DNA of 64,000 bases from an uncultured Gammaproteobacteria bacterium. GTDB taxonomy: Bacteria > Patescibacteriota > Patescibacteriia > Patescibacteriales > UBA12465. Of this stretch, positions 2,259 through 28,309 are shown one piece after another. The stretch lies in NCBI GenBank assembly GCA_964570655.1, contig CAZMYU010000003.1, positions 34,325 to 98,324 of the forward strand, written 5' to 3'. The position numbers were made by a program, and so were the translations under genes. Every line of letters starts with the position of its first letter. Position 1 is the first letter of the stretch. Under the pieces are notes generated by a model. The model saw only the letters and a list, made by a program, of their open reading frames with translations. It was not told the DNA's origin and did no database searches.

Positions 2259-2588
2259 TTAATTATTCGATTTTCTAGGGATAATATGGACATGAATATG
2301 CGGAATAATTTGACCAGCCGACTCGCCACAATTGATATTAATATTATAGCCATCGGCTCCAAAGCGCTGTTTGGCTAATTCTCCTTGTTGTTTTACTATT
2401 TTCATTAAATAGGCCAGCTCATCATCGGGGGTCTCTCCAAAATCAGCAAAATGTTTCTTGGTAATAGCCAGGGCATGTCCAGGAGCTTTTGGTTTGATAT
2501 CTAAAAAAGCCAAAACCCGATCATCTTCGTAGATCTTGTTAGCGGGAATCTCATTATTAACTATTTGGCAAAACAAACAATCAGACAT
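2259..2588 (-). CDS. HIT (histidine triad) family nucleotide hydrolase
   Basis: 109 aa with HIHVHIIPR histidine-triad motif near the C-terminus. Confidence 0.85.
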   Translation of the reverse strand: MSDCLFCQIVNNEIPANKIYEDDRVLAFLDIKPKAPGHALAITKKHFADFGETPDDELAYLMKIVKQQGELAKQRFGADGYNININCGESAGQIIPHIHVHIIPRKSNN

Positions 2589-2590
2589 AT

Positions 2591-3040
2591 TTAAATAATA
2601 AATTTAGAATTCGGATCATTTTCATAGCGAATCTCATCGACTTCCTCTTGCTTCCCCTCCCCCTTATACAAAGTATCGGGCATATTGATAGAAATTGCCG
2701 GAACAGCTGAAATGCATTTGTAACCATGAACAATATTAGGAGGAATAATAACACTAAGCGGATTAGATTCACCAACCACCATTTTTTCGGCCTGACCATA
2801 AGTAGCTGAATCCGGCCGATTATCCCATAAATATAATTCAAATTCACCCGGGCCAACAAAGGCAAAAAAATCACTTTGCCGTAAATGCTCATGTGGGCCT
2901 CTAACAATACCCGGCTCAGTCACGCTATAATAAGCCATTTTGGGAAGATACTTAGTCTCATCAGCTCGATATAGCTCCGCCAAATAACCACGGTCATCAA
3001 CAAATTTATTTAACTTATTAATAATTACTCCGGAAATCAT
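2591..3040 (-). CDS. RmlC-like cupin (dTDP-4-dehydrorhamnose 3,5-epimerase-related)
   Basis: 149 aa. DDRGYLAE, VRGPHEH and PPNIVHGY resemble the RmlC cupin family. Shorter than canonical RmlC, so the exact activity is uncertain. Confidence 0.6.
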   Translation of the reverse strand: MISGVIINKLNKFVDDRGYLAELYRADETKYLPKMAYYSVTEPGIVRGPHEHLRQSDFFAFVGPGEFELYLWDNRPDSATYGQAEKMVVGESNPLSVIIPPNIVHGYKCISAVPAISINMPDTLYKGEGKQEEVDEIRYENDPNSKFII

Positions 3041-4023
3041 ACTTTTAAATCTTTTTTAGTTAATAAACCATTTTGGGCTCCAATTTCAGACACTAGCGAA
3101 GCGGTGTTCAAAATTCCTAGCTTCATAGCTTTTTGAATGTCACCTTTATAAATCTGCAAACCCGCCCAAAAAGTCGAATGAAAAGCATCGCCGACACCAG
3201 TAACGTCCAATTTCTTTTTTCCTTTAATAATACTCTGATGATAAAATTTTTGACCATCATACACATCCACTCCTTTGGCTCCAGAAGTGATCACCACCAA
3301 GCGCGGACCGAATTTTTTAATAACAGTCAACAAATTTTTGATATTATTGGCCCAGGCCAGATTCTTTCCTTTCAAAGCTCCGGCGTCTTTGGCCAACTCC
3401 AAAGCCTCATCTTTGTTCAAACATAAAATATTGGTTCGAACCAGATAAGTCTTAAGGGATTTAAAAGGAGCATTGAGCTGAACATGACCAGGATTCCAAA
3501 TAATCTGTCGACTAGATTTAAATAAATTATCCAAATTATTTTTCCAGGCCGTCCCAGATAAAGAAGTAATATATAGCCACTTGGCTTTTTTCAAAATCCG
3601 ACGGTCGCTAGCAGTCACTTCCAAATCATCATTAGCCCCCCGATAAGAAAAAATCAAACGTTCTCGGTGACGATTCAAAATAACCAAAGAAAAACCGCTT
3701 AAATTTTTCTTAGAAACCCTCAGCCAAGCACCTTTGACTTTTTTGGTTTTCAAATTTTTCTTAATTTTAGCACCTCGCTCATCAGCCCCTACGCTAGTTA
3801 TAACTCCAACCTTAAATCCGAGACCAGCCAAATTAACAACCACGTTAGCGGCTCCACCACCAAAATTAAAATAAGCCTGATCAATATTAATTTTAGATCC
3901 ATCCTCAAAAGCTAAAAGTTGTTGTTTCAAAACATCCCGACGATTAGCTAAAACCACCCCCTGGTCAGTATAAAAAGCAATATCCTCCGTGGCTCCACCC
4001 ACGGCCATTAAATCGTAACTCAT
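3037..4023 (-). CDS. PfkB-family carbohydrate kinase
   Basis: 328 aa. FGGGAANV N-terminal signature and C-terminal DVTGVGDAF signature of ribokinase/PfkB kinases. Confidence 0.8.
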   Translation of the reverse strand: MSYDLMAVGGATEDIAFYTDQGVVLANRRDVLKQQLLAFEDGSKINIDQAYFNFGGGAANVVVNLAGLGFKVGVITSVGADERGAKIKKNLKTKKVKGAWLRVSKKNLSGFSLVILNRHRERLIFSYRGANDDLEVTASDRRILKKAKWLYITSLSGTAWKNNLDNLFKSSRQIIWNPGHVQLNAPFKSLKTYLVRTNILCLNKDEALELAKDAGALKGKNLAWANNIKNLLTVIKKFGPRLVVITSGAKGVDVYDGQKFYHQSIIKGKKKLDVTGVGDAFHSTFWAGLQIYKGDIQKAMKLGILNTASLVSEIGAQNGLLTKKDLKV

Positions 4024-5431: not shown

Positions 5432-6481
5432 TTAAAAAATCGTTGGCAAAATCTTGACCTTTTCCAATAAAGCTTCGTTGGCAAAAAGCAGCCCAGTTCC
5501 TCGACAGACAGCGGTGAGCGGATCGTCCACCACAATCACTGGAGTTTTGGTGGCCTGAGTAATCAATTTATCGAGACCATAAAGCAAGGCGCCACCTCCG
5601 GACAAGTAAATGCCCCGATCATAAATATCAGCCACTAATTCTGGCGGAGTCGCTTCTAAAGTCAATTTGATATTTTCCACCATCTTGCTAATAGTTTTAG
5701 CTAGAGCCTCTCTGACCTGGCCATCATTGATAGTAATCGCTTTAGGCAATCCATTGATCAAATCTCGGCCTCGAATTTCCATGCTCCGATTTTCGTCAAA
5801 AGGTAGAGCCGAACCAATTTGAATTTTTATTTTTTCCGCCAATTGTTCACCAATCAATAAATTAAATTCTTCCCGAATATAATCGATAATATTATTATCC
5901 AATTCATTACCAGCAATTTTCATAGATTTATAAGCCACTACCCCGCCCAAAGAAATAACCGCAATATCTGTGGTCCCGCCGCCAATATCCACGATCATGG
6001 TAGCAGTCGCATCTAAAACTGGCAGTCTGGAGCCCACCGCCGCGGCCATCACCTCGTCAACCAAAAAAACTTGCCGAGCCCCGGCTGATTTAGCCGCATC
6101 TTCCACGGCTTTTTTTTCTACCTCGGTAATATCCAAGGGGATTCCAACAATGACCCGCGGTCGAGGCATGAGTACAAAAGAATCACCATGAGCAATTTTT
6201 ATAAAATGTTTGAGCATTTTTTCGGTCACTTCAAAATCAGAAATAATCCCATCAACTAGGGGCTTAACGGTTTGGATATGCCCTGGAGTTTTGCCCAGCA
6301 TTTTCTTGGCTTCTCGGCCAATTTCTAAAATCTCAGTCGTTCTGGTATTGATAGCCACAATCGAAGGTTCATTAATAATGATTCCCTGACCTTCGACATA
6401 AACTAGAGTGTTTTTGGTACCCAAATCAACGCCCAAATCTTGAGCAAAACGACCAAATTGTTGAAAAATTTTGTTAAACAT
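5432..6481 (-). CDS. mreB: Actin-like rod shape protein MreB
   Basis: Motifs DLGTKNT, DIGGGTTD and LSGGGALL. The ORF-track start 6511 overlaps proS. ATG at 6481 (MFNKIFQQF...) lies 2 nt after the proS stop and is preferred. Confidence 0.9.
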   Translation of the reverse strand: MFNKIFQQFGRFAQDLGVDLGTKNTLVYVEGQGIIINEPSIVAINTRTTEILEIGREAKKMLGKTPGHIQTVKPLVDGIISDFEVTEKMLKHFIKIAHGDSFVLMPRPRVIVGIPLDITEVEKKAVEDAAKSAGARQVFLVDEVMAAAVGSRLPVLDATATMIVDIGGGTTDIAVISLGGVVAYKSMKIAGNELDNNIIDYIREEFNLLIGEQLAEKIKIQIGSALPFDENRSMEIRGRDLINGLPKAITINDGQVREALAKTISKMVENIKLTLEATPPELVADIYDRGIYLSGGGALLYGLDKLITQATKTPVIVVDDPLTAVCRGTGLLFANEALLEKVKILPTIF

Positions 6482-7706
6482 AAAAAATCTCGGATAACTT
6501 TTCGATATCAATCAACTCACAATCTTTAGAATTTCTCTTTTTAAATTCTATTTTGTTCTCTTTAATAGTTTTTGGACTCACCACCAGTCGATAAGGAATA
6601 CCAATTAGATCGGCTTCAGCAAATTTTTGCCCGGCACTCACGCCCTCCCGATCATCATATAAAACCTCGATCTTATCTTGAATTAATTTTTGATAAATTT
6701 CACTGGCCTCAGTATTGACCCCCAAAGAAATCAAATGGATCTTGAAAGGAGCCACTGCTTCGGGCCACAGCAGTCCCGCTTCATCATTAAACACTTCTGC
6801 TAGCGCCCCCAACAAACGACTCACCCCAATTCCATAACAGCCCATCAAAACTTCCGCAGTCTGACCCTGAGCATTTAAATAATTGAAACCAAAGGGCTTG
6901 GAATATTTATTGGCCAATTTAAAAATATTGCCAACTTCAATGGCTTTTTTAACTAGCAATTTTTTGTTGCCACAAACCGGACAACTAGATTGATCAGCAA
7001 TAATTTCTTTGTTAACCGCCATCTGACAAGCGGCACACAAATAAATATCATCTTCGCCATTGTCAGTAACAGTTTGAAACTCATGAGAATATTTAGAAAA
7101 AGTACCGCCCGAAGCATAAGTCAAATAAGTAATATCTTTTAATCCTAAACGCTCATAAATTTTATAATAAGCTTCCTGCACTTGTTGATAATAATTATCC
7201 AAATCATCCTGGGTAGCGTGAAAAGAATACATGTCTTTCATCAAAAATTCTCGACCCCGCAGCAATCCAGCCTTGGCCCTCTTTTCGTTTCTAAACTTGG
7301 TTTGAATTTGATAAACCGCTTGTGGCAATTCTTTGTAAGAAAAAACAAATTGTTGAAGTAGCGGAGTAACCACCTCTTCGTGAGTCGCGTTGAGCGCGTA
7401 TTCTTTTTTTTCAGAAGTATTTAATTTAAACAAAACATCCAAATCAGTCCAGCGACCAGTCGTCTCCCAATTAGCTTTGGGCGTGAGAGTGGGCATGAGA
7501 ATCTCTTGACCACCCACCTGATTCATTTCCTCTCGAATAATCTGGCTAATCTTATTGAGCACCCTAAGCCCCAAAGGCAAATAAGAATAAACCCCGGCCG
7601 CGACTTTATCAATAAAACCAGCCCGCTGTAAAAGTCGGGCATTTAAACTAGTCTCATCCTTGGGATAATCCTTGAGAGCTTTGGTAAATAATTGAGAGTA
7701 AAGCAT
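6474..7706 (-). CDS. proS: Prolyl-tRNA synthetase, short bacterial-type form without INS editing domain
   Basis: 410 aa. N-terminal MLYSQLFTKALKDYPKDETSLNARLLQRAGF, class II motif 2 region QTKFRNEKRAKAGLLRGREF, motif 3 GCYGIGVSRL, C-terminal anticodon-binding domain. A CAAC...CPVC four-Cys segment sits where long forms carry INS. Confidence 0.9.
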   Translation of the reverse strand: MLYSQLFTKALKDYPKDETSLNARLLQRAGFIDKVAAGVYSYLPLGLRVLNKISQIIREEMNQVGGQEILMPTLTPKANWETTGRWTDLDVLFKLNTSEKKEYALNATHEEVVTPLLQQFVFSYKELPQAVYQIQTKFRNEKRAKAGLLRGREFLMKDMYSFHATQDDLDNYYQQVQEAYYKIYERLGLKDITYLTYASGGTFSKYSHEFQTVTDNGEDDIYLCAACQMAVNKEIIADQSSCPVCGNKKLLVKKAIEVGNIFKLANKYSKPFGFNYLNAQGQTAEVLMGCYGIGVSRLLGALAEVFNDEAGLLWPEAVAPFKIHLISLGVNTEASEIYQKLIQDKIEVLYDDREGVSAGQKFAEADLIGIPYRLVVSPKTIKENKIEFKKRNSKDCELIDIEKLSEIFYV

Positions 7707-12319: not shown

Positions 12320-14128
12320 TTATTCATTTTTGGCCATCTTATCTTGAATCTCACTTATCAATTCTTCCCTACTCATATTCACCGTCTCCTTATCACCGCG
12401 ACGACGGACGGCTAAATCCTGAGATTCCATTTCTTTGTCGCCCACTACCAGCATATAAGGAATTTTTTCCATAGTCGCTTTTCTAATTTTGTTGCCAACA
12501 GTTTCATCATTAACATCCGTCTCTACTCTAAGTCCCTGAGCTATAAAATCTTCGGCTAATTTATTTACATACTCATAATGTTTTTCACCCACCGCGATTA
12601 TTTTAATTTGAGTTGGTGATAACCATAAAGGAAAAACTCCGGCATAATGTTCAATCAAAAGACCGATAAAGCGTTCAAAACTACCTAGTAAGGCCCGATG
12701 AAGCATGTAAGGTCTCTCAGCTTGACCACTAGAATTGGTATAATTCATATCAAAACGATCTGGTAGATTGAAATCAAATTGCAAAGTTGAACACTGCCAT
12801 TCACGACCCAAAACATCCTTGATTTTAAAATCTAATTTCGGACCATAGAAAGCAGCCTCGCCTAGTTCTTCTTTAAAGTTTAATTTTTTTTCTATTGCTA
12901 CTTTTCTTAAAATATTTTCGGTAAAATCCCAACCAGCATCCAGGCCAGCATATTTATCTTTGTTTTTTGGATCTCGGAGTGACAGATAAACATTCACAGA
13001 ATCCTCGGAGAATCCGAAAGATTTATAAATAAACAAAATGAAATCAATAGTCTTTTTAAGTTCTTCTTCGACCTGATCTTCTCGACAAATAATATGAGCA
13101 TCATCCTGAGTAAAACCTCGCACTCTGACTAGCCCCGACAACTCACCTTTTTTTTCAAAACGATAGACCGTGCCGCATTCAGCATAACGAATTGGCAAGT
13201 CTCGATAAGACCTCAAGCTATGATTATAAATTTCCACATGAAACGGACAATTCATTGGCTTAAGCAAATACTCTTCAGAAATTTCTGCTATTTTTTTCTG
13301 CTGTCTCTCTTCTAAAGTCTGACCGACTTCCAAAGGTGGATACATTGAGCTATTATAAAACCCCCAATGGCCAGAAGTTTCCCATAAATTGCGATGACCA
13401 ATATGCGGAGTCCTAACCAATTTATAATGATTCTTGAAATGAGCATCATACCAAAATTTTTCAATTTCATGCCAAATAATTGCTCCCTTCGGGTGCCATA
13501 AAGGCAAACCTAAACCAACCTGCTCATCAATATGAAACAAGTCTAATTCCTTACCCAGCTTGCGGTGGTCTCTCTTTTCGGCTTCTTCTAGAAGATTTAA
13601 ATATTTGACCAGTTCTTTTCGATCATTAAAAGCCAAACCATAAATCCGAGTGAGCATTTTGTTTTTTTCACTGCCCCGCCAATAGGCTCCGGCCAACTTG
13701 TGCAATTTGAAACCCTTGGGATCAATCTGTTTTAGATTGTCCACATGCGGTCCTCGACACAAATCACTAAAATCACCCAAGGTATAAAAACCAACTTCTT
13801 CTTCCCCGGCAATGATCAAATCACTAATAAGTTCGGCTTTATAAATATCACCAGCTTTTTCAGCCGATTTCAAAGCCGTCGAACTTTTGACGGTCGAATA
13901 TTTAAACTCTAGATCTTGCCCTAAAATCTCAACCATGAGATCTTGAATTTTGGCTAAATCCGCCTCCACAATTTTATCAGCCCCAAAATCAACATCATAA
14001 TAAAAACCATTATCAATAGCCGGACCAATAGCTAATTGAGCCTTCGGCCACAATTTCTTGATAGCCATCGCCAAGACATGAGCCAAAGAATGCCGTTTAA
14101 TCTCTAAGTTGTTAGAATTGTTTTTCAT
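12320..14128 (-). CDS. thrS: Threonyl-tRNA synthetase lacking the N-terminal TGS domain
   Basis: Starts directly in the editing domain (RHSLAHVLAMAIKKLWP...AIGPAIDNGFYYD). Class II core (FRFEKKGELSGLVRVRGFTQDDAH, HRALLGSFERF) and anticodon-binding C-terminus. The ORF-track GTG start at 14152 lies inside a hairpin, so ATG at 14128 (MKNNSNN) is preferred. Confidence 0.9.
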   Translation of the reverse strand: MKNNSNNLEIKRHSLAHVLAMAIKKLWPKAQLAIGPAIDNGFYYDVDFGADKIVEADLAKIQDLMVEILGQDLEFKYSTVKSSTALKSAEKAGDIYKAELISDLIIAGEEEVGFYTLGDFSDLCRGPHVDNLKQIDPKGFKLHKLAGAYWRGSEKNKMLTRIYGLAFNDRKELVKYLNLLEEAEKRDHRKLGKELDLFHIDEQVGLGLPLWHPKGAIIWHEIEKFWYDAHFKNHYKLVRTPHIGHRNLWETSGHWGFYNSSMYPPLEVGQTLEERQQKKIAEISEEYLLKPMNCPFHVEIYNHSLRSYRDLPIRYAECGTVYRFEKKGELSGLVRVRGFTQDDAHIICREDQVEEELKKTIDFILFIYKSFGFSEDSVNVYLSLRDPKNKDKYAGLDAGWDFTENILRKVAIEKKLNFKEELGEAAFYGPKLDFKIKDVLGREWQCSTLQFDFNLPDRFDMNYTNSSGQAERPYMLHRALLGSFERFIGLLIEHYAGVFPLWLSPTQIKIIAVGEKHYEYVNKLAEDFIAQGLRVETDVNDETVGNKIRKATMEKIPYMLVVGDKEMESQDLAVRRRGDKETVNMSREELISEIQDKMAKNE

Positions 14129-14140
14129 ATGTTTACTGCT

Positions 14141-14176
14141 GGTGTCAGGCACCTTTATCGCTTGGTGCCAGACACC
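14141..14176. repeat. GC-rich hairpin GGTGTCAGGCACC-10 nt-GGTGCCAGACACC (copy 2, 5' of thrS)
   Basis: Same 13-mer and TTTACTG(CT) flank as 12287-12314. One mismatch in the stem. Lies between the T-box terminator and the thrS ATG. Confidence 0.85.
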
Positions 14177-14356
14177 AAAAAATCTCGTTCCAATAATTTA
14201 AAAAATAAATTACTAGAACGAGATTTCTCCCGCGGTTCCATCTAGTTTTCCCGCCTGCGGTGGGACACTTACTTACAATATTTATAGTTTAGAAAAAATG
14301 ACCAAAATGGCCCAGTGTTTGGTAGACACCGCAATCACTACAAATATCTATTACTT
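14177..14356 (-). promoter_or_regulatory. T-box riboswitch leader of thrS (antiterminator/terminator clearly present; Stem I unresolved)
   Basis: Minus strand 14245-14213 reads CUAGA-UGGAACC-GCGGGA-GAAA-UCUCGU-UCUAG. That is helix A1, the 7-nt T-box bulge UGGAACC, and helix A2 with a GNRA loop. A competing terminator pairs AAAUCUCGUUC (plus inner UAAUUUA/UAAAUUA) with GAACGAGAUUU and is followed by UUUU (14177-14229). AGAGA and AGUGA motifs lie upstream. Confidence 0.8.
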
Positions 14357-14385
14357 ATTATAAATCTCTTATAGACAAAAGTCAA
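14357..14385 (-). promoter_or_regulatory. Candidate promoter TTGACT-N17-TATAAT for the thrS leader
   Basis: Minus strand TTGACTtttgtctataagagattTATAAT. It may instead lie inside T-box Stem I. An alternative TATAAT is at 14455-14460. Confidence 0.4.
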
Positions 14386-14486
14386 TTTGGGGGCCAAAAC
14401 ACTGAAAACCACAAAGTTTTGATCAGCCAATAACAAAACAAAACAAATATGACCATTATAGAAGTAGCCCGAATTTCTTTCATAAA

Positions 14487-15824
14487 CTATTTGGTTTCCA
14501 CAAAAATTCGGTCAGACAAAGACGGGGCTCGCTTGATAAACTTGGGGAAAAACTTGAGTTCAAAAGTATCGACTTCCTGAAAATTACTCAAATAATTGGT
14601 CAGTTGCTGAGCATTTAGATTGACCAATTTTTTCTTATCAATAAAATCGGCTTGATTGTCAGATACCTGGCTAGAATAAAAAACTTCTAAATTAACAATC
14701 TTATCAGTCGAATTAAAATTCTTGATTTCATAACTAAAACTATTTTTGTCTAAATCGGACAAAATTTTGTCAGCTCCCAATTCGCTGATTAATTGTTTTT
14801 TGATGAGAGCCGATAAATCATCGGATTTAAAAGTAGCCACCTTAACAATATTTTTGGCATTTAATTGCCAGCGATCTTTGGCATCACCAACTTTGGCATC
14901 GATCAAATTAAATTCTAAAGTTTTGGGATCGGCAAAATAAATTACTTGATCATCGCCATTCATATTGCTAGCTACCTGCACCTTGATCTTATCGATTAGT
15001 TTCTGATTCATTGCTATCTTGGCCGCTTCTAGATCTTCTTTGGTGATAAGCTTCTGACCACTAGCATTATATGTGAAAGCCTCGTGACTTTCTCCGTAAA
15101 TCTTGGCTTGGAGAGCGGGGTTGAGCCCAGGAATACTAAAACGGGTTGGAGCTATGGCCATATCCGCTGACAATTTATCCGGATAAATATCCACTTCCAC
15201 CTGACCATTTTTGGGGACGGTCACAGCATTCTTGATTCTAAACAGTTTATTATCAGCACTTAAAAGTCGCGTAGTAGCAACTAAGGGCTGACTGCTGGCA
15301 GTGGTGTTAATAATAGTCACCTTGCCAGTCAAAGTCGCTCCCTCGCTAGAAACACCGGTAGCTGAAAATTCGCCGACTTCGCTCACTTCTAGATCAGACA
15401 AATGCCCATAAATAGCGGTTTCGTTTTCCAGTAATTTGTTTTGATCGCCATAAATATTAAGACTAGCATCGCCTTTGACGCTTTCGGAGGCTGGATGAAC
15501 AATCACAGTGAGTTTGCTAAAAGAAAAATAAGCTACTACTAAAACCAAAATAATAATCAACACCAAAAACCGACGAGCTAGACGACGATACACCCCAACA
15601 TTTTTGACTGGCTTAACACTAGTGGCCGGACTAGAAGTAGTTGAAGCCGACTGGTCTTTCTCTTCTCTAATTTGTCTAGACATCATTTCGAAAAACTCCC
15701 GTCGAGTATCATAGTTTTGTTCGGCTGGTAAATCATTGATAGAGGGAATAACTTTGCGAGTCTGATGAACCGGAGCCGGAGCTGGACTCTTTTTTTTGGG
15801 GCTAACTATTTTTTTAGTAGGCAT
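14487..15824 (-). CDS. Hypothetical membrane-anchored protein
   Basis: 445 aa. Basic/Pro-rich cytoplasmic N-terminus (KKKSPAPAPV), one TM (FLVLIIILVLVVAYF), large beta-rich external domain. No catalytic motif recognised. Confidence 0.5.
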   Translation of the reverse strand: MPTKKIVSPKKKSPAPAPVHQTRKVIPSINDLPAEQNYDTRREFFEMMSRQIREEKDQSASTTSSPATSVKPVKNVGVYRRLARRFLVLIIILVLVVAYFSFSKLTVIVHPASESVKGDASLNIYGDQNKLLENETAIYGHLSDLEVSEVGEFSATGVSSEGATLTGKVTIINTTASSQPLVATTRLLSADNKLFRIKNAVTVPKNGQVEVDIYPDKLSADMAIAPTRFSIPGLNPALQAKIYGESHEAFTYNASGQKLITKEDLEAAKIAMNQKLIDKIKVQVASNMNGDDQVIYFADPKTLEFNLIDAKVGDAKDRWQLNAKNIVKVATFKSDDLSALIKKQLISELGADKILSDLDKNSFSYEIKNFNSTDKIVNLEVFYSSQVSDNQADFIDKKKLVNLNAQQLTNYLSNFQEVDTFELKFFPKFIKRAPSLSDRIFVETK

Positions 15825-15876
15825 AAACTAATTAATTTAATTGAGTTTTATATGGATAATTATAACACTTTTTTTA

Positions 15877-18800
15877 TTATTCAACAACTTGTAAATCAAC
15901 TGGAAAATTATCTTTTAGCTCATTTAAAAGAGCGGCTGACTTATCAACCTGAAAACCGGTTTTGAGTATCCGAGACTCACCATTACTATTAATTTTAAAA
16001 TAAACTTGGGCAGAGCCAGGATATTTCAATAAAATCCGACGCAAGAGTTCTAGCTGATCAGCTGGCAATTCTTTGGCCAAAATTATTTTGAGCATTTCTA
16101 GGGCTACTGGCTCAGGGCTAGCCACTATTGGCTGCTCGGGTTTGGAGCTAGTGGTCTTCGAACGAAAATTATTGCGCCAATTACTTTTGCCATTACTAGC
16201 GCTCATTATTTTGGCCTTAAAACGATCGATGGATCCCACTACGTCATTATCATCGATAGCCATAGCCTGGTTGACCAAAAACTTGACATCCTGATCTTTA
16301 TCAGAAACCCGTCCTTCACAAATCACCGTCTTCCCTTCCTGCCAAATTTCCGGACTAGCGGTTAAGACCTTGGGAAAAACCAAGAGCTCAATATTGGTAA
16401 TAGCATCTTCAATTTTTACAAACAACATACTCTCATTATTGCGAGTCATAATCTTTTTCAAACTCACAATCACCCCAGCGGTTTTTACTGAGAAATCACT
16501 CTCATGCCCCTTTAAATTCATAAGCGGAGTAATAAAGCCGTTCAGATACTCCCGATAATGATTAAAAGGATGCTCGCTAATATACAAACCCAACAATTCT
16601 TTTTCCCATTGCAATCTAAGTTTGTCATCAATTGGTCCAGCCGGCGCCAATTTGGGCTTGATACCCTCATACACCAAAGGAGCGCTAGCAAACAAACTAT
16701 TTTGTCGACTCAGCAAAGATTTGGCATGTTCTTTATTATAACTCAGTAGCAATTCCATGTTGGCCAAAAGTTCTCCGCGATCTCGAAAACCGTCCAGGCC
16801 ACCGCATTTGATCAAGCTCTCTAAAGATTTTTTATTGAGATCTTTGTCAGTAATTCTTTCCAAAAAATTAAAAACATCTCCGTAGGGACCATTAGCTTTT
16901 CTTTCCTTAATAATAGTTTCAGCAATATGTTCACCAACATTTTTAACCGCACTCAGCCCAAAGCGAATAGCCTGCGGTGACTCGCTAGCCGTTGCTTCTT
17001 TGTTTTTCTGAGTACCGGAAGTGATGACCGTAAAAGAAGTAAATGATTCATTAACATCGGGGGGCATAATGCTCAGTCCCATTTTGCGACACTCATCAAT
17101 CTCAATCGCGATGCGATCAGTATCATGTTGATCAGAGGTGAGTAGCGCCGCCATGAACTCGGCTGGAAAATGAGCCTTGAGATAAGCGGTCTGATAACCG
17201 ATCATGGCATAGCAAGCGGCATGACTGCGATTGAAACCATAACCAGCAAAAGGCTCAATAAAAGAAAACAATTTTTTGGCCAGCTCATCAGAAAGACCGT
17301 TGGCAATACAACCACTCACAAATTTTTCTTTTTGCTCGGCTAAGAGGGCTGGAATTTTTTTGCCCATGGCTTTTCTAAGAACATCGGCTTGTCCCATACT
17401 AAAGCCAGCCAACTCCCGAGCAATTTGCATGACTTGTTCTTGATAAATAGCCACGCCATAAGTTTTATCTAAAATAGGTTCAAGTTTAGGATGCAAATAA
17501 TTTATCTTTTGTTTATGCTTGGAAGAAATATAATCCGGAATCCATTCCATGGGACCCGGCCGATACAAAGCCACCATAGCAATAATATCTTCTAGCTCGG
17601 TGGGGACCAAATCACGCAAATATTTTTTCATGCCCGAAGACTCAAATTGAAAAACACCAGTAGTTTCACCTTTTTGAAAGAGACGATAAGTTTCTAAATC
17701 ATCAAGCGGCAAATCATCAATATCAATCTCTAAGCCCCGAGTATTTTTGATAATTCTCAGTGCCGCCTCAATAATGGTGAGATTTTTAAGCCCTAAAAAA
17801 TCCATTTTGAGTAACCCCAAATCTTCAATCGGGTGCAGTGAATATTGTGAGACTACATCTTTGTCCGAAGAAGAAGCATATTGCACGGGCACATTATTGA
17901 TGAGCGGATCCTTGGTAATGAGTACTCCGCAAGCATGCATTGAAGAATGACGAGCCACTCCTTCCAAAATTTTGGCAAAATCTAATATTTGCCGAGCCGC
18001 CGGCTCTTTCTCATAGATTTCTTTTAACTCCGCGACAGTTTTGAGAGCTTCGTCTAATTTGGTAAACATCGGAATCATCTTGGCCAAACGATCACAATAA
18101 TCATAAGGCTCGTTTAAAACTCGACCAACATCCCGGACGGCCGCTCGCGCCGCCATAGTTCCAAAAGTGATAATTTGTGAAACATGATCTTGACCATACT
18201 TGCTTTCAACATAACGGATCACTTCGTCTCGCCGGGTATCGGCAAAATCCATATCAATATCCGGCATCGAAATTCGATCGGGATTTAGAAATCTTTCAAA
18301 CAGCAAATCATAGCGAAGAGGATCCAAGTTGGTGATGCCAGTCAAATAACAAACAATTGAACCAGCGGCACTCCCACGACCGGGACCGACCACAATCTTG
18401 CGATCCTTGGCCCAATTAACAAAATCAGCAACAATCAAAAAATAAGAAGGCCAACCCATTTCGCCAATCACCTTCAACTCATATTCCATTCGATCAGTGA
18501 TAGCTTTTAATCTTTCGGGCGGAAGTTCTGCTTTGTATCTTTTTTTGATTCCCTCTTCGCATAAATGTTTTAGATAACCCAAACCATCATAAGGAGCCGG
18601 CACATCAAAATGAGGCAATTGCACATTGCCCAATTCAATGTTCACCTGACAAGCCTCCGCGATTTTCAAAGTATTGAGAGCCGCTTCAGGAACCTCGCTA
18701 AACAGAGCCGACATCTCTTCTGGTGACCGCAAAGAATAATCACCAAAGCCTTTCATTTTCATTCGATCAGTGTCGTCTATCTTTTTTTTGTTTTGCAGAC

Positions 18801-19467
18801 ACAATAAAATATCTTGAGCCGTATCATCTTCCTGACGCAGATAATGAGAATCATTGGTCAAAACTAGTGGAACATTGAGCTCTTTAGAAAATTTAATAAG
18901 TTGTTTATTGACTCGGTCCTGACCCTCTAACTCAGGATGATCCATTATTTCCAAATAAAAATTACCAGGGCCAAATAATTCCTGGTACTCTAAAATTCTT
19001 TTTTTGGCTTCCGGCAATCTGTCGGCCGAAATAAGCCGCGGAATCTCTCCGCCCAAACAAGCCGTCGAAGCAATTAAACCCTCGTGATATTTAGTGAGTA
19101 ACTCCCAGTCGATTCGGGGTTTATAATAAAAACCCTCCAGATGAGCATAGCTAGTTAACTTGATCAAATTTTGATAACCCTGATTATTTTTAGCTAGCAA
19201 CAAAAGATGAAAGTTGCGAGCATCATCACGAGTTTTTTTCTCTAGTCGTCCATTAGGAGCGACATAAGCCTCCATACCAATAATTGGCTTAATACCGGCC
19301 TTCAGGCATTTCTGATAAAACTCGATTACCCCATACATAACACCGTGGTCAGTAATGGCCACGGCGGGAGAACCCTGTTCTTTGACTTTTTGGACTAGCT
19401 CGTCAATTTTGCTAAGTCCATCGAGCAAAGAATAATGGGTATGATTGTGAAGATGCACGAAAGACAT
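15877..19467 (-). CDS. dnaE: DNA polymerase III alpha subunit
   Basis: 1196 aa. PHP domain FVHLHNHTHYSLLDG, palm/fingers (PGRGSAAGS, PDIDMDF), C-terminal OB-fold region. Confidence 0.95.
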   Translation of the reverse strand: MSFVHLHNHTHYSLLDGLSKIDELVQKVKEQGSPAVAITDHGVMYGVIEFYQKCLKAGIKPIIGMEAYVAPNGRLEKKTRDDARNFHLLLLAKNNQGYQNLIKLTSYAHLEGFYYKPRIDWELLTKYHEGLIASTACLGGEIPRLISADRLPEAKKRILEYQELFGPGNFYLEIMDHPELEGQDRVNKQLIKFSKELNVPLVLTNDSHYLRQEDDTAQDILLCLQNKKKIDDTDRMKMKGFGDYSLRSPEEMSALFSEVPEAALNTLKIAEACQVNIELGNVQLPHFDVPAPYDGLGYLKHLCEEGIKKRYKAELPPERLKAITDRMEYELKVIGEMGWPSYFLIVADFVNWAKDRKIVVGPGRGSAAGSIVCYLTGITNLDPLRYDLLFERFLNPDRISMPDIDMDFADTRRDEVIRYVESKYGQDHVSQIITFGTMAARAAVRDVGRVLNEPYDYCDRLAKMIPMFTKLDEALKTVAELKEIYEKEPAARQILDFAKILEGVARHSSMHACGVLITKDPLINNVPVQYASSSDKDVVSQYSLHPIEDLGLLKMDFLGLKNLTIIEAALRIIKNTRGLEIDIDDLPLDDLETYRLFQKGETTGVFQFESSGMKKYLRDLVPTELEDIIAMVALYRPGPMEWIPDYISSKHKQKINYLHPKLEPILDKTYGVAIYQEQVMQIARELAGFSMGQADVLRKAMGKKIPALLAEQKEKFVSGCIANGLSDELAKKLFSFIEPFAGYGFNRSHAACYAMIGYQTAYLKAHFPAEFMAALLTSDQHDTDRIAIEIDECRKMGLSIMPPDVNESFTSFTVITSGTQKNKEATASESPQAIRFGLSAVKNVGEHIAETIIKERKANGPYGDVFNFLERITDKDLNKKSLESLIKCGGLDGFRDRGELLANMELLLSYNKEHAKSLLSRQNSLFASAPLVYEGIKPKLAPAGPIDDKLRLQWEKELLGLYISEHPFNHYREYLNGFITPLMNLKGHESDFSVKTAGVIVSLKKIMTRNNESMLFVKIEDAITNIELLVFPKVLTASPEIWQEGKTVICEGRVSDKDQDVKFLVNQAMAIDDNDVVGSIDRFKAKIMSASNGKSNWRNNFRSKTTSSKPEQPIVASPEPVALEMLKIILAKELPADQLELLRRILLKYPGSAQVYFKINSNGESRILKTGFQVDKSAALLNELKDNFPVDLQVVE

Positions 19468-22195: not shown

Positions 22196-22200
22196 GTAAG

Positions 22201-22284
22201 TGCCTCGGGAGAGACTCGAACTCTCATGGGATCGCTCCCACACGATTTTGAGTCGTGCGCGTCTACCAGTTCCACCACCGAGGC
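22201..22284 (-). tRNA. tRNA-Leu (anticodon CAA), class II with long variable arm; CCA not encoded
   Basis: Minus strand: GCCTCGG-TG-GTGGAACTGGTAGACGCG-CACGA-CTCAAAA-TCGTG-TGGGAGCGATCCCATG-AGAGT-TCGAGTC-TCTCC... with 3' acceptor CCGAGGC and discriminator A. Acceptor, anticodon and T stems all pair. The anticodon loop is CU-CAA-AA. Confidence 0.92.
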
Positions 22285-27870: not shown

Positions 27871-27887
27871 ATAAATTAAAATTATTT

Positions 27888-28298
27888 AGCTAGGCTATAA
27901 GCCGGATTCTGTCCATAAACAATAAAGTCTATGGGACGATTATTTATCTTGCCCCACAATTACTCGCGGGGTCAGGCGAACTACTTTTCGTCACCCCTAA
28001 GGGGTGGTTCGTTCTTGCTTCAGGCAGGGTTTACCGAGCTAGCTCGTTACCGAGTAGCCAAAGCCGTTAAACGGCTAACTTTTCACCTTTGGCCTTAATC
28101 CGAAGACTAAGGTTAGTATTGTCTCTGTGGCACTTTCCCTTTCCCTCCACCCTTGCGGGTGTTCGGGACGGCGGGTGTTACCCGCTACCTCCGCCCTAAT
28201 GGGCGACCTCAAACCATCTATGGTTTGAGGAAAGTCCGGACTTTCCTCTCCGTTTTCAGTCAAAGACCAAAAAAAACAGAGCAATCGTCCGCCTAGCT
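27888..28298 (-). ncRNA. rnpB: RNase P RNA, bacterial type A
   Basis: Minus strand carries GAGAGGAAAGTCCGGAC (CR-I), AAAGTGCCACAGAGAC, CTCGGTAAACCCTGCC (CR-IV) and GGACAGAATCCGGCTTAT (CR-V). P1 pairs AGCTAGGC with GCCTAGCT. The 95-aa track ORF 28075-28362 overlaps it and is spurious. Confidence 0.93.
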
Positions 28299-28309
28299 TA
28301 ATAATTAAT

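Follow-up and report, generated by a model that had tools for sequence, protein, structure and literature searches.

The subject of this analysis is the leader of thrS, the gene for threonyl-tRNA synthetase (ThrRS), in a 64,000-nucleotide (nt) stretch of contig CAZMYU010000003.1 (the window); all leader coordinates are on the minus strand, in positions of the 64-kb window. We consider it very probable that this leader is a T-box riboswitch with a minimal decoding module and that it controls thrS by transcription attenuation. An earlier note on this DNA had proposed a T-box switch upstream of thrS with a reduced Stem I, and both parts of that proposal were upheld. The switch has the UGGN bulge, the G.U pair at the base of helix A2, the RRRxG-Stem III-AA motif and a terminator formed from a shared strand, and the reduced Stem I is a 6-base-pair (bp) hairpin at 14331..14313 that is supported by covariation. 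The secondary-structure elements, conservation, covariation, specifier, shared-strand switch and promoter described below are those given by the sequence and its comparison with related leaders. For this comparison, 17 Patescibacteria-type thrS leaders (L001, L002, L003, L007, L021, L076, L081, L102, L117, L121, L281 and L290-L295) were collected by reading upstream of thrS and, together with the window leader, made up the compact set (n = 18). All 18 have a common plan, P1-GAUUG-P2(NNACCAA)-P3-CUAA-P1', followed by Stem III and UGGAACC, and they span ThrRS lineages down to 45-51% identity with the window enzyme.

The discriminator half of the leader, which contains the switch, consists of three elements.

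14270..14246, minus strand: purine motif AAGUG (14270..14266), Stem III UCCCACC-GCA-GGCGGGA (14265..14249) and AAA (14248..14246)
14245..14213, minus strand: antiterminator, with helix A1 (CUAGA 14245..14241 with UCUAG 14217..14213), a bulge and helix A2
14227..14179, minus strand: intrinsic terminator, in which a 22-bp hairpin incorporates the 3' strands of both A2 and A1, with the U tract UUUUUU at 14182..14177

The antiterminator was present exactly as the earlier note had written it, CUAGA/UGGAACC/GCGGGA-GAAA-UCUCGU/UCUAG (CUAGA-UGGAACC-GCGGGAGAAAUCUCGU-UCUAG). The 7-nt T-box bulge UGGAACC occupies 14240..14234 between A1 and A2 and was found in all 18 leaders. Helix A2 (GCGGGA-GAAA-UCUCGU, 14233..14218) begins with the basal pair G14233.U14218; this pair is G.U in 12 of the 18 leaders and G-C, A-U or A.C in the others. 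The RRRxG-Stem III-AA motif, represented in the Rfam alignment by AAGUG, the 7-bp Stem III and AAA, is, like the G.U pair at the A2 base, a hallmark of the T-box discriminator domain (PMC7583486). Helices A1 and A2 covary across the 18-leader alignment, and all seven pairs of Stem III change on both sides. The terminator, which the same note had described as sharing the 3' half of the antiterminator, was also present with its U tract, at a folding energy of -26.2 kcal/mol (z = -9.7; 0 of 200 shuffles were as good) versus -8.8 kcal/mol for the antiterminator; these energies favour the terminator by default.

A terminator hairpin and U tract that consume the 3' strand of the antiterminator were found in 18/18 leaders, and the output is therefore transcription termination. 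Control of translation, as in actinobacterial ileS T-boxes, whose specifier is likewise in an apical loop, would agree with the literature, in which every short-Stem-I T-box described to date is translational (PMC7583486, PMC7778990). However, a U tract follows the alternative helix in every leader of the set, and that helix excludes the start region, found another 30-100 nt downstream and outside the switch, with no Shine-Dalgarno sequence sequestered. In the window the start codon (ATG 14128) is about 50 nt past the U tract. We regard translational control as exceedingly improbable.

Upstream of the discriminator, the leader for which we favor a terminating T-box forms a compact decoding module with the following parts.

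14348..14337, minus strand: 5' strand of helix P1, GAUAUUUGUAGU, which pairs with 14288..14277, closes the decoding module and folds
14336..14332, minus strand: junction GAUUG, single-stranded or non-canonically paired, found in 17 of 18 leaders
14331..14313, minus strand: P2, the reduced Stem I, a 19-nt hairpin with a 6-bp stem (CGGUGU/ACACUG) and a 7-nt apical loop (CUACCAA, 14325..14319)
14312..14300, minus strand: P3, a 5-bp hairpin (GGCCA-UUU-UGGUC) at the position of Stem II, without an S-turn
14299..14289, minus strand: junction AUUUUUU followed by the F-box-like CUAA (14292..14289)
14288..14277, minus strand: 3' strand of P1, ACUAUAAAUAUU, which holds ACU (14288..14286), paired and unconserved

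P1 comprises 12 bp in the window and, across leaders, joins the first nucleotides of the RNA to a stretch about 50-80 nt downstream. It closes P2 and P3 into a three-way junction, and the window module folds in this way on its own (-19.1 kcal/mol, z = -3.35). The earlier note had failed to assemble a Stem I because what is present is a 6-bp hairpin whose apical loop carries the specifier and which is part of a three-way junction.

Covariation was assessed with four alignments. Alignment A1 (MAFFT over whole leaders) misaligned everything between P2 and Stem III, so alignments A2 and A3 were built by hand in blocks and N-padded to stay gapless. Since a hand alignment leans towards its own structure, alignment A4 was added, in which MAFFT, without further help, aligned the module only, starting 5 nt ahead of GAUUG and stopping 5 nt past CUAA; its boundaries were defined by conserved motifs and not by pairing. 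In the 18-sequence hand alignment, 95.5% of cells held a standard pair, compared to 63.5% in shuffles and 35-49% with slid partners. Of the 34 pairs, 31 changed on both sides, and the covariation score was 0.769 versus at most 0.18 for slid partners, a value reached by 0 of 500 shuffles. This is the outcome of the comparison with related thrS leaders that the earlier note had called for, and it bears out the proposed helices. For P1 and P2 in alignment A4, 96.5% of cells were paired and the score was 1.23 (at most 0.19 when slid). All five junction-proximal pairs of P1 and six pairs of the P3 helix change on both sides across relatives. P2 pairs in 97-99% of cells and was recovered unaided by RNAalifold on alignment A4, with 6 compensated pairs.

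As a side observation, RNAalifold proposed an extra G.U pair between columns 10 and 30 of alignment A4 (window G14332 and G14312) in 12 of 13 sequences. It is in competition with the pair that opens P3, and this P3 pair covaries, being U-A in 12 leaders and G-C in 4; because 14312 is a G in the window, only the P3 pair can form there.

The specifier ACC (14323..14321), followed by the conserved A14320, lies in the P2 loop. The earlier note had picked out this ACC, in cuACCAaa, as one of two candidate specifiers and had asked for a threonine codon in specifier-like loops of homologous leaders; ACC was retained in all 18 P2 loops. The loop reads NNACCAA in 17/18 leaders, with A, C, C, A and A at positions 3-7 and variable positions 1-2 (CU, GC, CC or CA). 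The loop of the exception, L076, is 10 nt long and likewise contains ACC, so that ACC is found in 18/18 loops and ACC-A in 17/18. We read the frame as ACC (Thr) because the regulated gene is thrS and because T-boxes keep a purine 3' of the codon. The second candidate, ACU at 14288..14286, was dropped, being paired in the 3' strand of P1 and changing freely in relatives.

P2 is also sized like an anticodon stem-loop, and the regulated gene is thrS; both would suit an autoregulatory operator of the E. coli thrS type, with P2 bound by ThrRS as a mimic of the anticodon arm. Such an operator is very improbable here. The P2 loop shows the codon ACC and not a threonine anticodon (GGU, UGU or CGU), the element is joined to a complete T-box discriminator and terminator, and the start codon is located about 50 nt past the terminator U tract rather than beside P2.

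With P2 taken as a T-box specifier hairpin, the rest of the module can be set against ordinary T-box parts. P3 starts in the window at the nucleotide right after P2; among the 16 leaders with a P3, the P2-P3 spacer is empty in 12, 1 nt long in one and 3-10 nt long in three. Most relatives have P3 as a fully paired stem of 4-7 bp with a loop of 3-5 nt, and L117 is without it. CUAA or CCAA was found in 17/17 leaders having P1. A small hairpin resembling Stem IIA precedes CUAA in about half of the relatives, and the window has none. In the Rfam alignment of L007, the P3 equivalent falls on Stem II and CGG-GCAA-CCG-CUA falls on Stem IIA plus CGUUA. Because Rfam's own alignment of L007 maps P3 and CUAA in this way, P2 reads as a putative Stem I cut down to its specifier, P3 as a Stem II remnant and CUAA as an F-box remnant; P1 reads as a closing helix not found in ordinary T-boxes. 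Rfam aligned the GA of GAUUG to the UGA of the K-turn, and the GA/K-turn motif of Stem I may survive in GAUUG as a remnant of its 5' half. The conserved GA (of GAUUG) and AA (of CUAA) flank P1, adjacent P1 pairs covary, and no 3-nt bulge is left. A standard K-turn at the base of Stem I could not be drawn, because the P1 pairs beside the GA covary. The window copy is without the distal double T-loop of Stem I, the S-turn of Stem II, the Stem IIA/B pseudoknot and the elbow-binding motif.

Upstream of the module, the promoter bears on how long the leader RNA can be.

14385..14357, minus strand: sigma-70-like promoter TTGACT-N17-TATAAT (-35 at 14385..14380, -10 at 14362..14357), matching 11 of 12 consensus positions
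12320..14128, minus strand: thrS, the regulated gene, 602 amino acids (aa), no TGS domain

The gap between a 445-aa open reading frame (ORF), which ends at 14487, and the thrS ATG (14128) is 358 nt long on the minus strand and contains, in order, the promoter, about 170 nt of structured sequence, a further, separate hairpin and the start codon. The predicted transcript start is near 14350, 1-2 nt ahead of P1, and the promoter ends 20 nt before GAUUG. Promoters matching at least 10 of 12 consensus positions were found in 14/18 leaders. The best candidate of every leader in the set has a -10 element whose end lies 10-32 nt ahead of GAUUG, at the foot of P1. The earlier note had recognized this promoter but had placed it where Stem I would be; the promoter stood, whereas its position marks the start of a short leader. 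The AGAGA that the note had listed as an upstream T-box motif (GA box) is at 14369..14365 in the promoter spacer and is therefore not in the RNA. On the sequence evidence the RNA is predicted to begin at this promoter, and the leader leaves no room for a long Stem I.

An ordinary T-box with a long Stem I further upstream, and TTGACT-N17-TATAAT as a chance lookalike inside the leader, would fit the frequency of consensus promoter matches in AT-rich DNA (8 versus 3.0 expected in a 1-kb stretch). Against it, similar-quality promoters were found at the same distance from GAUUG in most relatives, P1 covaries directly downstream of the promoter, and the upstream ORF ends at 14487. The Rfam results also speak against such an arrangement, which we judge to be very unlikely. 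In a scan of both strands of the window with all 4227 families, RF00230 matched 14347..14211 with 30.1 bits (E = 0.0079 for the 64-kb window and 4227 families; E = 6e-5 for a 500-nt stretch). The alignment deleted 65 of the 87 condensed Stem I positions (22 nt were matched) and placed nothing upstream of 14347. Because Rfam must delete Stem I, scores were low throughout the compact set: the window and its relatives had 23.6-40.4 bits or no RF00230 match, versus 52.8-119.1 bits for ten control thrS leaders with a long Stem I from other phyla. The compact group is thus a separate low-scoring group.

We take the RF00230 match to be more than chance because, besides RNase P RNA and a tRNA, it was the only match in the window with E <= 1. 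The earlier note had held that a score below threshold over the whole leader would speak against a T-box. The gathering score in the Rfam release used was 93 bits, and the leader does fall below it; however, only 2 of the 10 long-Stem-I controls passed. Since 8 of 10 long-Stem-I thrS T-boxes also fail, the cut-off is too strict to decide membership, and the check did not discriminate. One thrS T-box, at 1957..2160 of L038, scored 54.1 bits, between the compact leaders (at most 40) and most long forms. This T-box, possibly an intermediate in evolution, combines a Stem I of intermediate length (AGAGAG...GGGCUGUAAG...AAUACCAACU) with A1 and A2 helices similar to those of the compact L007.

From what is known of the T-box family, we infer that the leader would bind tRNA, sense its charging and act by antitermination. 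The RNA would start near 14350, and its 5' end would pair with 14288..14277 to form P1 and close the three-way junction. P2, with P3 adjoining, would then present ACC and the following purine in a 7-nt apical loop resembling an anticodon loop, and the anticodon of tRNA-Thr(GGU) would pair with ACC. The 3' end of an uncharged tRNA (UCCA if position 73 is U) would pair with UGGA at 14240..14237 and stabilise the weak antiterminator (-8.8 kcal/mol), so that polymerase could read through into thrS. With charged tRNA or no tRNA, the terminator (-26.2 kcal/mol) would form and transcription would stop at the U tract. The default state would thus be off, relieved when uncharged tRNA-Thr bridges ACC and UGGA. 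The UGGAACC of 18/18 bulges predicts a tRNA-Thr ending in UCCA, and UGGA was found in 27 of 28 collected thrS T-boxes of both architectures from several phyla. For bacterial ThrRS, position 73 has been reported not to act as a strong identity element (PMC9976931). With no double T-loop, S-turn or pseudoknot, auxiliary tRNA contacts would therefore have to come from something else, and the conserved GAUUG/CUAA junction is the best candidate.

[quoted passage not shown] The patchy distribution of the element points the same way, the T-box being missing in L289 and in nine other Patescibacteria-type thrS loci (L004, L005, L006, L043, L062, L074, L077, L082 and L083). We nevertheless consider a relic unlikely, in that NNACCAA (17/18), GAUUG (17/18), CUAA/CCAA (17/17) and UGGAACC (18/18) have been kept despite complete compensatory turnover of the stems. 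From the loci without a T-box it follows that the compact form has been gained or lost sporadically within the group.

Several observations weigh against a functional tRNA-sensing T-box and are given together here. The RF00230 score of 30.1 bits is far below the gathering score. Because the 18 sequences were hand-aligned around the proposed helices, the paired fraction is inflated, which the slid controls and alignment A4 offset only in part. Conservation of the P2 loop by itself leaves the frame ambiguous, with ACC, CCA and CAA each present in 17/18 loops. The closest ThrRS relative, L289 (73% identity), has no T-box upstream of thrS (2400..2716). An ARAGORN search of the window and of about 50 loci turned up no tRNA-Thr gene; the loci included eight lineages taken with flanks of 10 kb to either side of thrS, as far as the contig reached. 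Lastly, elbow contact in transcriptional T-boxes and an S-turn in those with a short Stem I have been reported to be needed, and the window copy shows neither (PMC7583486, PMC10482949).

The product of the regulated gene has the domains tRNA_SAD, tRNA-synt_2b and HGTP_anticodon, in agreement with its earlier assignment as thrS. It is identical to a database protein (P0001), and about 120 further database proteins are 64-73% identical to it, the named ones being labelled "Patescibacteria group bacterium" or "bacterium". Its best genome matches (61-69% identity) were metagenome-assembled genomes labelled Paceibacterota and Saccharibacteria. By these similarities, ThrRS places the window within the Candidate Phyla Radiation (Patescibacteria). 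The Rfam scan found no other T-box in the window. No T-box precedes a second class II aminoacyl-tRNA synthetase gene of the window (7706..6474, minus strand; upstream gap 93 nt) or ileS of L292 (16012..18957; upstream gap 67 nt), and the switch is therefore specific to thrS in the available sequence. A scan of viral contigs with a general compact-T-box pattern gave 120 matches, of which 2 had a pairable P2 stem and neither was a T-box.

Other features of the locus and window were also recorded. Between the terminator and the thrS start is a further hairpin (14176..14141, minus strand; GGUGUCUGGCACC...GGUGCCUGACACC; -18.6 kcal/mol, z = -5.2), whose role may be to stabilise the mRNA at its 5' end; hairpins of other sequence occupy the same place in L001 and L002, and L291-L293 have none. 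UGGCACC at 14170..14164 was ruled out as a second T-box bulge, as it is fully paired in this -18.6 kcal/mol hairpin. The gene order dnaE, a hypothetical protein of 445-523 aa without a Pfam match, and thrS (window 14487..19467, minus strand; L290 and L291, 4400..9700) is retained in at least two relatives that also have the compact T-box. The usual arrangement thrS-infC-rpmI-rplT, absent from the window, was seen in the non-Patescibacteria loci L140, L150 and L157, in which a ribosomal protein L20 leader (RF00558, 57-61 bits) is directly downstream of thrS at about 3730..3890. Elsewhere in the window are a bacterial class A RNase P RNA (27882..28300, minus strand; 171.8 bits; several insertions compared to the model) and tRNA-Leu(CAA) at 22200..22284 (minus strand). 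A gene of the '23S rRNA-intervening sequence protein' family (PF05635; 59745..60125, minus strand) sits inside a block of glycosyltransferase and polysaccharide-export genes at about 41.5-59.7 kb.

A recent scheme divides T-boxes into four classes (PMC10482949). Class I has a long Stem I with an elbow-binding double T-loop and a Stem II with an S-turn; class II is specific for glycine, has a long Stem I and is without Stem II; class III has a short Stem I with the specifier in an apical loop of 5-6 nt and requires Stem II, as in actinobacterial ileS; and class IV has an intermediate Stem I (PMC10482949). Transcriptional T-boxes "generally require" a long Stem I, and those with a short Stem I are translational and do not bind tRNA without the S-turn and pseudoknot (PMC7583486). 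In TBDB, the translational class with a short Stem I was sought with a custom model on Actinobacteria genomes (PMC7778990). Class III examples cited in PMC7583486 and PMC10482949 include the ileS T-boxes of Nocardia farcinica and Mycobacterium tuberculosis (Sherwood 2015; PDB 6UFM and 6UFG). By its discriminator, specifier and switch, the predicted leader structure belongs to the T-box family, yet it falls outside all four described classes; the closest known form is the ultrashort-Stem-I class of actinobacterial ileS T-boxes. That the compact leaders form a fifth architectural class, with a terminating switch, a P1-closed decoding junction, a 7-nt apical specifier loop and no double T-loop, S-turn or pseudoknot, is a tentative proposal to which we give slightly less than an even chance.

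If the proposal is true, co-transcriptional sensing of tRNA may be possible with anticodon and NCCA contacts only; if those contacts do not suffice, the GAUUG/CUAA junction or a protein would be a new kind of latch. Either way, the rules that transcriptional T-boxes need elbow contact and that a short Stem I needs the S-turn would be contradicted. Reviews explain the elbow-contact rule by the need of transcription-coupled switches to capture tRNA quickly enough, and a conserved, covarying Patescibacteria family with an apical-loop specifier, a terminator and no such helper motifs would be a natural test of both rules. T-boxes are a model system for one structured RNA reading another, and this decoding-plus-sensing module, at about 135 nt, would be of a size suited to engineering. 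T-box regulation would also extend to a large, poorly studied bacterial radiation with few known regulators, and standard Rfam annotation would be shown to miss compact T-boxes altogether. No paper linking T-boxes with the Candidate Phyla Radiation or Patescibacteria was found in the literature covered, which was incomplete.

The compact form resembles class III in its short Stem I with an apical-loop specifier, the lack of a distal double T-loop, the zero-length linker to the next hairpin, and a discriminator core with Stem III purines, a UGGN bulge and a G.U pair. In contrast to class III, its loop has 7 nt rather than 5-6 nt, no K-turn can be drawn (only the 5' GA is present, with no 3-nt bulge), and the equivalent of Stem II is a plain 4-7-bp hairpin without an S-turn. 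The window copy has no Stem IIA/B pseudoknot and relatives have a vestigial one, and the compact form adds P1, a helix that closes a multi-helix junction around Stem I, Stem II and IIA. The output of the compact form is a transcription terminator, whereas class III sequesters the ribosome-binding site, and the compact form is found with threonine and Patescibacteria, whereas class III is found with isoleucine and Actinobacteria. With class I (the Bacillus subtilis tyrS type, RF00230) it shares attenuation by an antiterminator and terminator with a common strand, the UGGA bulge, RRRxG-Stem III-AA and the F-box-like CUAA; in long thrS forms, ACC followed by a purine is likewise the specifier. 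Class I thrS T-boxes, found in spirochaetes, Firmicutes and others (L018, L045, L072 and others), differ in their RF00230 scores (53-119 bits versus 24-40 for compact leaders), and their elbow-binding double T-loop and S-turn are absent from the window copy. The class II glyQS T-box is likewise transcriptional and works without a Stem II S-turn, but it has a long Stem I with an elbow-binding motif and a K-turn, a single-stranded linker in place of Stem II and an all-G:C GGC:GCC pairing. The E. coli thrS operator regulates the same gene with a hairpin of the size of an anticodon arm; however, the operator shows an anticodon, binds ThrRS and blocks the ribosome, whereas the compact leader shows a codon and has the discriminator and terminator of a T-box.

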